Of a DNA stretch of 64,000 nucleotides, positions 35,594 to 36,862 are shown in pieces (position 1 is the first letter of the stretch; every line of letters begins with the position of its first letter). The stretch covers positions 96,001-160,000 of the forward strand of contig CAWJET010000001.1 in the NCBI GenBank assembly GCA_963842085.1, given 5' to 3'. The translations under genes were made by a program, and so were the position numbers. The DNA is from an uncultured delta proteobacterium. GTDB taxonomy: Bacteria; Desulfobacterota; Binatia; Binatales; Binataceae. Below the pieces are notes generated by a model. The model had not been told where the DNA came from. It ran no database searches and saw only the letters and a list, made by a program, of their open reading frames with translations.

Positions 35594-36862
35594 ATGGCTT
35601 CCGAACTCAACGCCACCGCCGACGCATCCGCCACACGTGAGATCTCCCGCGAGGAGCTCCGGCGCCGGCTGCACGATTCTTCGCTCACAATCGTGGACGT
35701 CTTACCCGAAGCGTCGTACGTCGGGGCGCACATCCCGGGCGCACTGAGCCTTCCGCTCGAGCAGATTGCCAGTCGCGCGCACGAACTCCTTCCCGACCCC
35801 GCCGCCGAGCTCGCCGTCTATTGCGGCAAATTCACGTGAACTCGCGCTCAGGAGGCGGTCGCCTCGCTCCATGCACTCGGTTACACGAACGTTCGCCACT
35901 ATAGCGGAGGCATCGCCGACTGGGTCGAGTCGGGCGAACTGACGGAGCGCGTGGCTGAAGCCGCCGCCGCGGACTCGAATCCGGAGCAATCGGTGGTGGC
36001 CGGCCCTCCGCTCACGGTGTCGCCGGATGGAGCGATTGGCCGCGGTCCCGCGCGCGTCTCCCGGATGCGTCGATTCGACAACTCGGTACTGGACCTGATC
36101 CAGCGACGGTCCGCCTTGCAACTCTTTCTCATCTGGATGGGAATGATCGCGCTGTGCGGTGTCGGCTACTGGCTTGGTGCGCTGATGGGCGAGCACGGGC
36201 TGGTCGAGGCGGGCCACCCGCTTGCCGCCGATCTCAACGGCCTGGCGAGCGCGCTCTACTTCAGCTTCGTGACCGCGACCTCCGTCGGTTATGGCGACAT
36301 CGTACCGGTCGGAATGGCGCGCGCGCTCGCGGTCGCCGAGGCCGTCACCGCGCTGCTTATTTTCGGCGCGGTCGTCGCCAAGTTCGTCTCGCATCGGCAG
36401 GAAGAGTTGGTGAGCGAAATCCACCGCGTCACGTTTGAAGAACGGCTCGATCGCGTTCAGACCAACCTGCACATGGTGATTTCGGAACTGCTTTCGATCT
36501 CAGCAATGTGCGAAGCGAAGTCGCCGCTGAATCGAATCAGCACCCGGCTGGAAAGCGCCGCGCTGCTGTTCCTCGGTGAGTTGCGTACCACCCGCGATCT
36601 GCTCTATCAGCCGCGGCTGGTCGTCGAGGAAGGCGTCTTGGCCGGGATTCTCGCCACCCTCACCTCGGCGCTCAGCGTGCTGGCCGACCTCCTCGCATGC
36701 CTGCCGCAGGAATTCTCGCGCTCGCAGCCGTTGGAGATTTCGCTCCAGAACCTGACGCGTCTCGCGCGGGACATTTGCGGCGAATGCGTCCCCCACTCCT
36801 ACACGCCCAGGCTCGTCTTCTGGATGGATCGGATCCACGCGACGGCGAATCGAATCAAGTAA
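35594..36862 (+). CDS. Putative selenoprotein: rhodanese domain (CxxxxU) fused to a two-TM potassium channel pore (422 aa, Sec82)
   Basis: IVDVLP..Y...HIPGA...VYCGKFT-TGA(35837)-TRAQEA...LGYTNVRHYSGGIADW completes the rhodanese fold in frame and runs without a stop into FSFVTATSVGYGDIVP; hairpin follows the TGA. Confidence 0.78.
35840..35868 (+). promoter_or_regulatory. Candidate bacterial SECIS element
   Basis: Stem GAGGC/GCCUC (35852-35865) with GGUC loop starting 18 nt after the UGA. Confidence 0.6.

Follow-up and report, generated by a model that had tools for sequence, protein, structure and literature searches.

A predicted selenocysteine-containing rhodanese-potassium channel fusion protein in an uncultured bacterium of the Binataceae

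A gene of an uncultured delta proteobacterium (Desulfobacterota; Binatia; Binatales; Binataceae) very probably encodes a single read-through protein with selenocysteine (Sec) at residue 82, in which a rhodanese domain is fused to a potassium pore. The gene was found in the window, a stretch of 64,000 nucleotides of contig CAWJET010000001.1 (assembly GCA_963842085.1). The product is likely to be a K+-selective tetrameric channel. The best explanation of the locus, taken as a whole, is a selenoprotein K+ channel gated via Cys-Sec chemistry, and on balance we favour it.

The sequence-only reading of this DNA had proposed that a rhodanese open reading frame (ORF) cut by a TGA and the channel ORF that follows belong to one frame. 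This was borne out. The frame runs from ATG 35594 to TAA 36860-36862, yields 422 aa when read through and contains a single in-frame TGA at 35837-35839; a single Pfam rhodanese match (residues 19-112, E 1.3e-15) spans both sides of codon 82. Upstream of the TGA the frame ends in VYCGKFT, and 37 stop-free codons (TRAQEAVASLHALGYTNVRHYSGGIADWVESG...) lie between the TGA and GTG 35951, the start of the listed ORF 35951..36862. Orthologues begin at the corresponding position and span 410-432 aa when read through. Domain matches, models and conservation showed a predicted architecture of four parts, namely a rhodanese domain, a disordered linker, a KcsA-like two-transmembrane (2-TM) pore and a five-helix C-terminal domain (Table 1). 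The linker differed in length between orthologues in the alignment, and the inter-domain geometry of the AF2 monomer model was uncertain (pTM 0.48). A promoter scan found no sigma-70-like promoter upstream of the gene.

Table 1 Positions of the gene and of its predicted features in the window
Feature	Position	Strand	Basis
Whole gene, predicted Sec codon 82	35594..36862	+	422-codon read-through; orthologues share conserved ATG (MAS...)
Rhodanese domain, residues 19-112, presumed cytoplasmic	35648..35929	+	Pfam PF00581, 58.1 bits vs cut-off 22.2
Cys77 codon TGC, canonical catalytic-Cys position	35822..35824	+	Invariant in A2; aligned with catalytic Cys of solved rhodaneses
In-frame TGA, predicted Sec codon 82 (C77-G-K-F-T-U82)	35837..35839	+	TGA or Cys kept across relatives
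SECIS-like hairpin AGGAGGC / GGUC loop (35857-35860) / GCCUC-G-CU	35850..35868	+	In TGA forms, not Cys forms
Linker, low-complexity, poorly conserved, residues ~121-163	35954..36082	+	AF2 pLDDT <50 at 121-135 and 156-163
TM1, residues 174-197	36113..36184	+	AF2 helix
Pore helix and filter TATSVGYGD (36272-36298)	36233..36298	+	Pfam, AF2, conservation
TM2/inner helix, residues 241-268	36314..36397	+	AF2: one long helix 241-307
Five-helix C-terminal domain, residues 270-422	36401..36859	+	Carries the family's most conserved motif FEERLDRVQTNLH
CxxC, C395-G-E-C398	36776..36787	+	Invariant in A2 (66 rows), A4 (56) and A5 (17)

Conservation was assessed mainly in alignment A2, whose 66 rows include 48 of 62 locus ORFs and 17 of 67 database proteins, a selection made by hand to keep redundancy low, and in A5, a distant set of 17 rows with a mean identity of 31%. 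The protein alignments were built without L048/L085 (genome G049), L029 (genome G020, a split match) and L084 (short).

The family profile matched PDB rhodaneses, with 6mxv as the best (E 1.6e-28), and rhodaneses were the top Foldseek matches of the full model, with TMt of 0.7-0.88 to single-domain rhodaneses. The rhodanese domain was modelled by AF2 with a pLDDT of ~90. In rhodaneses, the active-site loop has six residues (CxxxxR/T) and opens with the catalytic Cys. Here the invariant Cys is present and the loop has two residues more than the canonical one, C77 being at the catalytic position and U82 within the insertion; the HMMER alignment sets 'YCakftCerS' against 'YCGGG--FRS'. Both C77 and U/C82 were invariant in A2 and in the distant set. 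Judged by its sequence, CxxxxU is an atypical class of rhodanese loop, and a paralogous stand-alone CxxxxU rhodanese is encoded in the same genome.

Two transmembrane helices and a K+ pore signature fused to the rhodanese had also been read from the letters, and Pfam, AF2 and the KcsA profile match agree with that assignment. Pfam PF07885 (Ion_trans_2) matched residues 216-265 (E 1.9e-12, 47.3 bits against a cut-off of 22.5), the AF2 pore helix lies at residues 214-230, and the family profile matched KcsA chains at E ~1e-8, with the KcsA/Kir match extending over residues 171-272. The filter TATSVGYGD is present as first described, and its coordinates required correction, since position 36278, given earlier as its start, is the start of TSVGYGD (Table 1). 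T227, S230, G232, Y233, G234 and D235 were invariant in A2, and GYGD or GFGD was found in all distant members other than P0185 and P0189. These two relatives have lost the GYG filter and added an AhpC/TSA peroxiredoxin domain, and they retain the rhodanese, the transmembrane part and the C-terminal domain. The protein of the window thus has the features by which a K+ channel is recognized, which are a profile match over the cut-off, a TxGYGD signature and a modelled TM1, pore helix and TM2.

The C-terminal domain, when modelled alone with AF2, reached a pLDDT of 90.3 and a pTM of 0.82. It had no Pfam match and no usable ESM Atlas match, and Foldseek against the PDB returned 0 matches at E<=1e-3; the best matches had E values from 9e-3 upwards and were designed helical repeat proteins, taken as unspecific. 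Just 207 of 1.84 billion cluster representatives matched the domain. With no fold or family match, the CxxC domain is a new domain. Its CxxC was also found in the last 45 codons of 36 of the 40 resolved cross-phylum loci, and the order of the fusion, with the CxxC domain directly below the inner helix, is conserved across phyla. Complex prediction for docking of the rhodanese on the C-terminal domain, performed with the database Cys-form proteins (alignment A3), gave scores of 0.20 and 0.05, where the mark is 0.32, and speaks neither for nor against such docking.

Both termini of a 2-TM channel are on the same side of the membrane, presumably in the cytoplasm, so that the rhodanese loop and the CxxC domain could meet under the gate. 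The Cys-Sec pair would act as a highly reactive switch, held in a reduced form or in a selenenylsulfide or persulfide-loaded form. Such a switch would respond to oxidants or sulfane sulfur, possibly by exchange with the CxxC pair, and its state would be passed to the inner-helix bundle, whereby K+ flux would be opened or closed; this coupling of domain to gate we purely infer. Hints towards a redox role are that C77, U/C82, C395 and C398 are invariant and that P0185 and P0189 gained a peroxiredoxin domain. Gating by thiol/selenol redox or sulfane-sulfur chemistry is a plausible proposal that we put forward with some reserve. More tentative is its fullest version, in which the protein is the first ion channel to use Sec, its K+ gate is set by the rhodanese Cys-Sec switch relaying to the CxxC of the new helical gating domain, the signal sensed is peroxide or sulfane sulfur (or selenium), and Sec is ancestral in the window's family with Cys arising later.

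The invariant filter also bears on an unlikely alternative, in which the rhodanese is a working enzyme (a sulfur/selenium transferase or reductase) that the channel module merely anchors or tetramerises at the membrane, or one that serves another membrane process, with K+ flux independent of its chemistry. Rhodanese domains are usually catalytic, and Sec is usually a catalytic redox residue, according to the available text of two selenoproteome studies (PMC13188914, PMC9312934). The stand-alone CxxxxU paralogue fits this alternative as well, and P0185 and P0189, having exchanged GYG for a peroxiredoxin, indicate that the scaffold does not need a K+ pore to serve redox chemistry. However, K+ filter residues that are invariant in 66 rows, and kept as GYGD/GFGD in the other distant members, would be needless for a mere anchor, and conservation across phyla of the fusion order and of the CxxC domain below the inner helix likewise argues against it. 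Less probable again is that the Cys-Sec and CxxC pairs bind a soft metal or metalloid (e.g. Hg, As, Cu or selenium), so that the channel would sense or handle metal(loid)s and would not be a redox sensor. The four Cys/Sec residues that are invariant in each subunit would suit a thiolate/selenolate site, but no metal-binding family was matched and the flanks are without metal-resistance genes. The neighbours encode a MprF-like lysyl-PG synthase, an unknown protein and an OprB porin, and are separately transcribed or on the other strand.

The Sec residue of the proposed Cys-Sec-gated channel was traced through the codons of relatives. In the window's family, where the codon was read directly, TGA occupied the column in 58 of 72 fetched orthologous loci and Cys codons occupied it in 8 (TGC in 7, TGT in 1); the TGT locus, which also has a frameshift, was fetched twice (L048/L085, genome G049) and counted once, and 5 of the 72 loci were without a resolved codon. 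The fused gene was present in 73 of 165 family genomes and in 15 of 30 genera, with an in-frame TGA in 65 and none in 7. Among other phyla, TGA was found in 33 of 44 loci and Cys codons in 7, the codon being not resolved in 4. These cross-phylum members were located by a pattern scan, their distribution is patchy, and by record titles they represent at least six other phylum-level groups (Methylomirabilota, Acidobacteriota, Planctomycetota, Eisenbacteria, Krumholzibacteriia and Xenobia). The motif patterns failed on L027, L028, L049, L070 and L087 in the family and on L129, L132, L133 and L134 in other phyla. A search of 400 other genomes of the window's phylum, just 4 of which belonged to its family, gave no match at E<=1e-25. 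The unpublished genome G023 contributes to the counts over the 165 family genomes and is one of the 65 TGA holders, G018 was included in the family search, and G117, G173, G178, G179, G180 and G023 entered the SelA tally given below; none of these is in alignments A1-A7, nor is any claim based solely on them.

Among the best 120 database matches listed, 64 of the 67 full-length homologues had Cys at the column (P0008 being left out of the resolved homologues), and the other 53 were short 'channel-only' calls that start just past the TGA column. P0024 and P0080 had W there in the TGA-type context GKFTW, which could reflect TGG, or TGA called under another code such as code 4. In the tree, the 22 Cys forms together made up a single clade (support 100/97) that branches from among the 44 Sec forms, which a single Sec/Cys change suffices to explain. 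These results agreed with the earlier expectation that relatives would have either TGA or Cys at the column and would retain the fused architecture. The TGA also held up in raw data: DNA contigs of four public soil/sediment runs (two studies), one of which may be the source sample, covered the TGA with no letter differing, and the contigs of two of these runs carried SNPs elsewhere in the gene. A private nonsense mutation was rejected because the TGA is common to family and other-phylum loci, and a sequencing error was rejected because the TGA occurs in independent assemblies and in family genomes.

A SECIS-like hairpin lies just downstream of the TGA (Table 1). Bacterial SECIS elements, such as that of E. 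coli fdhF and others of the bSECIS type, have a stem ~11 nt past the UGA and G/U in the apical loop. The hairpin at this locus has this arrangement, with weak covariation: its stem begins 10-11 nt and its loop (GGUC/GUC) 17-18 nt after the UGA, the values in the window being 10 and 17, and the loop G and U are invariant or nearly so. Cells were paired at 79-84% in the hairpin versus 26-64% in slid registers, and the mean MFE was -10.7 kcal/mol in 56 TGA forms compared to -3.9 in 8 Cys forms. Third-position entropy was reduced in the stem relative to the positions outside it, both in the family (0.51 vs 1.35 bits) and in other phyla (0.24 vs 1.41 bits). In the same genome, the genes for SelD and the paralogous CxxxxU rhodanese have GG-loop hairpins at a similar distance. 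The 64-nt fold past the TGA did not exceed shuffled sequences in stability (z 0.55; 134 of 200 were at least as stable), RNAalifold retained a 4-bp core alone (-1.86 kcal/mol), and an Rfam scan of 35700-36000 (E<=10) returned no SECIS family and two irrelevant weak matches (a Burkholderia sRNA and a miRNA). Compensatory changes were few, and cross-phylum covariation measures were not above shuffles (456-471 of 500 reach them), so that support for the hairpin across phyla is conservation and not covariation. Within the family set, the covariation score beat all shuffles for both structures, as did the percentage paired and the double-change count for the bulged structure; these statistics may be inflated by relatedness, and no other measures beat all shuffles.

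The machinery for Sec insertion, another element of the earlier proposal, was present in the genome, which encodes tRNA-Sec, SelA, SelB and a Sec-type SelD with its own TGA, the three proteins all scoring over their cut-offs. SelA was detected in 152 of the 165 family genomes. Of the 65 TGA holders, 63 had it and the two without a match were both incomplete genomes (G020, 64%; G133, 84%); from other phyla, 5 of 5 genomes tested had it. Genome-wide reassignment of TGA was rejected, because TGA ends 1008 of 1961 long ORFs, more than any other stop, and the genome encodes RF2. The locus therefore shows what is expected of a selenoprotein gene, that is, a conserved UGA with Cys homologues, and Sec machinery in a genome where UGA is otherwise a stop. 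UGA 35837 would be decoded as selenocysteine by SelB and tRNA-Sec, with the hairpin at 35850-35868 directing the insertion, a step that is strongly supported. That the UGA is a putative Sec codon in one 422-aa rhodanese-channel protein had been suggested from the letters, and it now gains support from the TGA/Cys column, the hairpin and the machinery. The hairpin, the spread of the family over several phyla, the invariant CxxC of the new C-terminal domain and the position of U82 in the loop insertion were not part of that suggestion.

The same three lines of evidence make it very improbable that read-through of the UGA depends on a near-cognate tRNA for Trp or Cys, or on suppression at a low level, and not on the Sec pathway. 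The W in P0024 and P0080 would suit such a reading, but the codon behind these records may be a TGA translated under code 4. TGA forms alone have the conserved hairpin, in which synonymous sites are frozen, the Sec machinery is complete here and accompanies the TGA in nearly all other genomes tallied above, and the residue found in most database homologues is Cys, the chemical analogue of Sec.

Read-through of the UGA also agrees with how the sequence beyond it evolves. No in-frame stop occurred within 33 codons 3' of the TGA in any of 58 distinct TGA-bearing orthologues, substitutions by codon position were 0.255/0.213/0.471 after the TGA and 0.251/0.209/0.502 before it, and in other phyla the frame stayed open for 310-382 codons past the TGA. 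Translation of the channel only from GTG 35951, the outcome that would have overturned the proposal, was thereby contradicted, as the stretch from TGA to GTG evolves as coding and the residue at the GTG is not conserved as a start in A2. That TGA 35837 is a true stop, leaving an 81-aa rhodanese fragment and a separate channel from an internal start such as that GTG, or a pseudogene, is the least probable reading of all: gene callers do treat the locus so, with the window's own database record (P0021) a 289-aa channel-only protein and many of the best database matches also short calls, but the fragment would end mid rhodanese fold, the 37 codons past the TGA show the purifying pattern seen upstream of it, several phyla share the TGA in a total of 91 distinct sequences, and the short calls begin at differing in-frame codons within the C-terminal half of the rhodanese.

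The best selenoprotein-family match of the rhodanese part was NCBIfam NF045694 (E 3.2e-8, residues 6-129). This family is TsoB, a rhodanese/DsbD fusion-like protein given as 'rhodanese form 5' with the motif UxxxxU in the available text of PMC13188914. The predicted selenoprotein channel resembles TsoB in that its rhodanese is joined to a membrane module and has Sec in its active-site loop, and in the x4 spacing of the two nucleophiles. It is not a member of that family, as it scored 32.1 bits against a cut-off of 805 and had no DsbD-like Pfam match; in addition, its first position is Cys and not Sec, its module is a K+ pore whereas that of TsoB is a DsbD-like electron transporter, and the description of TsoB is without a CxxC helical domain. 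Stand-alone rhodanese selenoproteins of forms 1-4 (UxxS, UxxG, CxU/NF041203 and UxxG, respectively) share with it the Pfam rhodanese fold, Sec in or near the active-site loop and Cys homologues, and in the text available they are described solely as rhodanese-like or sulfurtransferase proteins (PMC13188914, PMC9312934). The cross-phylum consensus U-P-L-G reads 'UxxG', and on this motif the Sec position may already be catalogued as form 2 or 4. The score against NF041203 (LYCAU) was 28.5 with a cut-off of 115, and the CxU motif is absent, the spacing here being Cx4U.

TM1, the pore helix, the TxxSVGYGD filter and TM2 are shared with KcsA-type 2-TM channels (PF07885). KcsA has no N-terminal sensor domain and a short C-terminal helix only, whereas the protein described here carries a predicted selenocysteine-containing rhodanese at one end and the five-helix CxxC domain of 150 residues at the other. 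E. coli YgaP likewise has a cytoplasmic rhodanese attached to transmembrane helices, but its loop is canonical and, to our knowledge, it contains neither Sec nor a pore signature. The YgaP rhodanese was among the Foldseek matches (5hbo, E 6.9e-4), and the title of that entry reports S-nitrosylation and S-sulfhydration. No homology to RCK/KTN channels, KefC or Kv-beta was detected in Pfam, NCBIfam and PDB profile searches. In RCK/KTN channels (MthK/Kch), glutathione-gated KefC and the Kv-beta oxidoreductase subunits, a cytoplasmic chemistry-sensing domain is coupled to a K+ pore; these sensors are of other folds, and we know of none with a rhodanese or selenocysteine.

The word 'channel' had 0 occurrences in the main text of PMC13188914 and PMC9312934, whose supplementary tables may differ, and the catalogue of selenoproteomes in the available text includes transporters and ATPases and no channel. 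Within the texts covered by a literature search, neither a rhodanese-K+ channel fusion nor a selenoprotein ion channel was found, though a supplementary listing is possible; to that extent the search agreed with the sequence-only reading, which knew of no described selenoprotein K+ channel of such architecture. The protein is possibly the first selenoprotein ion channel.

If this reading holds, a membrane ion channel would be added to the prokaryotic selenoproteome. Control of K+ and membrane potential would then be tied to sulfur/selenium redox in uncultured lineages that are abundant in soil (Binataceae, Acidobacteriota, Methylomirabilota and others), and this would extend to widespread bacteria of soil and groundwater from six phyla or more. 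Annotation pipelines cut such genes at the TGA, and dozens of relatives are recorded under the names of hypothetical or ion-channel proteins of ~331 aa, so that both the selenoprotein family and the sensor-channel architecture are invisible in databases. The Sec and Cys forms would offer a natural, genetically matched pair for the study of a chemical switch that would gate a minimal KcsA-like pore.

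The sequence-only reading had proposed that a rhodanese sequence starting at an ATG and stopping mid-fold at a TGA continues through 37 stop-free codons into the ORF that begins at GTG 35951, and this frame was found exactly as claimed. The filter motif TATSVGYGD was also present; only its coordinates needed correction, and it spans positions 36272-36298. Orthologues all start at the conserved ATG (MAS…). A mechanical ORF list takes the frame upstream to GTG 35327 (170 aa before the TGA); the resulting 89-aa extension (35327-35593, + strand) had no family match and is probably not translated. 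A search upstream of the channel gene detected no promoter-like site. Because its neighbors are a divergent MprF-like gene, a convergent gene and an OprB-family porin gene, the channel gene appears monocistronic.

Features of the channel gene, its predicted product, its neighbors and the Sec genes elsewhere in the same genome (G000)
Feature	Position	Strand	Remarks
Read-through frame	ATG 35594 to TAA 36860-36862	+	422 residues when the TGA is read through
In-frame TGA (codon 82)	35837-35839	+	directly after VYCGKFT of the rhodanese-like sequence
Hairpin	35850-35868	+	stem begins 10 nt past UGA; GGUC loop 35857-35860
Listed ORF	35951..36862	+	GTG start; same frame as ATG 35594
Disordered linker	residues 121-163		AlphaFold model
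TM1	residues 174-197		AlphaFold model
Pore helix	residues 214-230		AlphaFold model
Inner helix	residues 241 to 307		AlphaFold model; four more helices after
MprF-like lysyl-phosphatidylglycerol synthase	32748-35342	-	divergent neighbor
442-aa protein	36930-38258	-	convergent neighbor; no Pfam match
OprB-family porin	38711-40102	+	neighbor
SelD, a selenoprotein (locus L001)	G000:C1:2099530-2100456, outside window	-	…CKAAG-U-AGKLGP…; GGUCC-GGC-GGACC hairpin after TGA
selB	G000:C1 2100611-2102506, outside window		directly adjoins the SelD gene

Orthologues were sought by a six-frame search that read through stops. The fused gene was found in 30 of 47 genomes of the same genus and in 73 of 165 genomes of the family Binataceae (15 of 30 genera), and the names on database homologues point to Candidatus Binatus or Binataceae. 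As counted from the table of genomes, 65 of the 73 had an in-frame TGA, 7 had none, and one (G049) had TGT followed by a frameshift; some counts take in unpublished genomes, and the claims are independent of these. Codon 82 was read in 72 fetched family loci as TGA in 58, TGC in 7 and TGT in one locus fetched twice, and was not resolved by the pattern in 5. All 58 TGA loci were distinct across the surrounding 66 nt, and the consensus around the Sec codon was Y-C-[GA]-x-F-T-U. Among the best 120 database proteins, 67 were full length, with Cys at the codon-82 column in 64, W in 2 and one not resolved; the other 53, including the window's own 289-aa record, were short calls covering just the part after the TGA. 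The expectation that relatives would keep TGA or Cys at this column together with the fusion was borne out by these counts. The TGA was also checked against independent sequence data and was identical in contigs of four public runs (two studies), one of which may be the window's source sample; two of the contigs differ elsewhere in the gene. The comparison among relatives is the decisive evidence for a real, conserved TGA.

When 44 Sec forms and 22 Cys forms were placed in a maximum-likelihood tree, rooted at the midpoint only, the Cys forms made a single clade (support 100/97) nested among the Sec forms, and a single Sec-to-Cys change would suffice to explain it. The two full-length records with W (P0024 and P0080) carry it in a context typical of TGA forms (GKFTW…QAVALL), and may not be true TGG codons but TGA codons on short contigs to which genetic code 4 was applied. 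The TGT locus (L048 = L085, G049:C12:5774-6931) is frameshifted soon after the TGT, has two other TGAs in frame and still has a fairly stable hairpin (-7.5 kcal/mol); the genome is 63% complete. It may have switched from Sec to Cys recently, be a pseudogene, or reflect faulty assembly.

All 58 family sequences stay free of stops over the 33 codons that follow the TGA. Split by codon position, pairwise differences were 0.255/0.213/0.471 after the TGA and 0.251/0.209/0.502 before it, and on either side this pattern is the mark of a protein that is translated and under constraint. The coding-type pattern after the TGA, and a residue at GTG 35951 that is not conserved in the alignment, counter translation of the channel from that GTG alone.

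The Sec machinery that such a protein presupposes was found in the genome: tRNA-Sec, SelA, SelB and SelD, the last with an in-frame TGA of its own. Global reassignment of TGA was ruled out, because the genome has RF2 and 1008 of its 1961 long open frames end in TGA. SelA was detected in 152 of 165 family genomes and in 63 of 65 TGA holders, the two exceptions being genomes 64% and 84% complete, as well as in all five tested genomes from other phyla. Nine of the ten genus genomes without SelA also lacked the channel gene. These nine (G002, G005, G008, G010, G014, G018, flagged unpublished, G022, G042 and G050) are smaller, at 3.1-3.7 Mb, a pattern pointing to joint loss of the Sec trait and the channel selenoprotein in one subclade.

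All TGA forms shared a SECIS-like hairpin in identical alignment columns, with 78.7-79.8% of cells paired in the family vs 26-64% when the 3' arm was slid; in the independent cross-phylum set the figures were 84.1% vs 28-50%. Folding energies over the 23-nt hairpin segment averaged -10.7 kcal/mol in TGA forms (sd 2.3, n=56) and -3.9 in Cys forms (sd 1.7, n=8), the most stable "Cys" fold being that of the frameshifted TGT locus. Third-codon-position entropy was 0.51 bits in the stem vs 1.35 outside it in the family, and 0.24 vs 1.41 in other phyla; such near-frozen third positions reflect selection on the RNA, not the protein. The loop G was invariant in both sets, and the loop U invariant across phyla and nearly so in the family. 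Hairpins with GG-containing loops lie at similar distances in SelD and a paralogous rhodanese of the same genome. The single-sequence fold after the TGA showed no extra stability over shuffles, RNAalifold retained just four pairs, compensatory changes were few, cross-phylum covariation measures were not above shuffles, and no Rfam family matched the hairpin.

Pfam placed a single rhodanese domain at residues 19-112, flanking codon 82 on both sides, and an Ion_trans_2 pore at residues 216-265, with no matches for residues 270-422. The family profile matched PDB rhodaneses with E values down to 1.6e-28 and KcsA at about 1e-8, with no matches past residue 272. The AlphaFold model (mean pLDDT 82.5, pTM 0.48) gave a confident rhodanese fold, and the C-terminal 161 residues modelled alone formed a five-helix domain (pLDDT 90.3, pTM 0.82) with no significant PDB fold match, Pfam family or Atlas neighbor. 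C77 aligned with the catalytic Cys of solved rhodaneses, and U82 lay within an insertion that extends the active-site loop by two residues over the canonical length. Y76, C77, U/C82, the filter residues, C395 and C398 were among the positions invariant in 66 sequences, and the C-terminal CxxC held without exception across 17 aligned rows with a mean identity of 31%. A single Sec-containing polypeptide is shown or strongly supported, as are this order of its domains, the intact K+ signature and the conservation of four Cys/Sec positions. The finding is real, and the structural interpretation of the sequence-only reading is supported.

A search of 1.84 billion cluster representatives with the C-terminal-domain profile gave only 207 matches. 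Distant members comprised full-length rhodanese/pore/C-terminal proteins with CxxxxC (one with CxxxxS), calls of about 305 aa starting within the second half of the rhodanese domain, and two proteins, P0185 (565 aa) and P0189 (455 aa, cut), with CxxxxC and an extra AhpC/TSA peroxiredoxin domain at the C-terminus. These two retain the rhodanese (CVSSAC) and the CxxC domain, their K+ filter has decayed to …SSYGD, and they would be redox enzymes on a channel scaffold. Scanning species-representative genomes with a pattern gave 44 loci, assigned by record titles to Methylomirabilota, Acidobacteriota (several classes), Planctomycetota, Eisenbacteria, Krumholzibacteriia and Xenobia; the column held TGA in 33 and TGT/TGC in 7, with 4 not resolved, and past the TGA the frame had no stop for 310-382 codons. 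Judged by these matches, the family is far wider than the window's lineage and conserved across several phyla. Since 400 sampled other genomes of its own phylum gave no match at E<=1e-25, the distribution is patchy.

As summarized in a 2026 review (PMC13188914), rhodanese selenoproteins take five forms (UxxS, UxxG, CxU, UxxG, and TsoB with UxxxxU), and the prokaryotic selenoproteome includes several Sec-containing transporters and, as far as that summary goes, no channel; the word "channel" is absent from its main text and from that of a 2022 review (PMC9312934). TsoB shares the x4 spacing and the fusion of a rhodanese to a membrane module, and the protein scored far under the cut-offs of both NCBIfam rhodanese selenoprotein models. 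The Sec site may already be catalogued as "rhodanese-related sulfurtransferase" from truncated N-terminal fragments, because the cross-phylum consensus U-P-L-G would fit the catalogued "UxxG". No rhodanese-K+ channel fusion or selenoprotein ion channel turned up in literature searches, supplementary tables aside. New here are the selenoprotein family, which is systematically mis-annotated, the sensor architecture for a KcsA-like channel, and the C-terminal domain.

With both ends of a two-TM channel presumably in the cytoplasm, the CxxC domain and the loop of the rhodanese would sit next to each other below the gate. Cys and Sec lie five residues apart in this extended, flexible loop, and the pair would alternate between two states, one reduced and the other carrying a selenenylsulfide or a persulfide. 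The state might be passed on to the CxxC, and the change would move the bundle of helices into which the inner helix continues. Thiol/selenol redox or sulfane-sulfur chemistry is suggested by the relatives fused to a peroxiredoxin and by a stand-alone CxxxxU paralogue, and gating by such chemistry of the Cys-Sec pair is a tentative but serious possibility. A tethered rhodanese enzyme that does not gate the pore is unlikely, and metal(loid) binding is more doubtful still. The function of the Sec switch is putative.

The paralogue (G000:C2 ~241315-241650, - strand, outside the window) has the same spacing (VVVYCRDSL-U-DLSARAA) with an in-frame TGA, followed by an 8-bp hairpin with a GGC loop, and its frame continues for >100 codons past the rhodanese part. 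The channel's sensor domain may descend from this stand-alone rhodanese. Similar rhodanese matches with one TGA were seen in many relatives.
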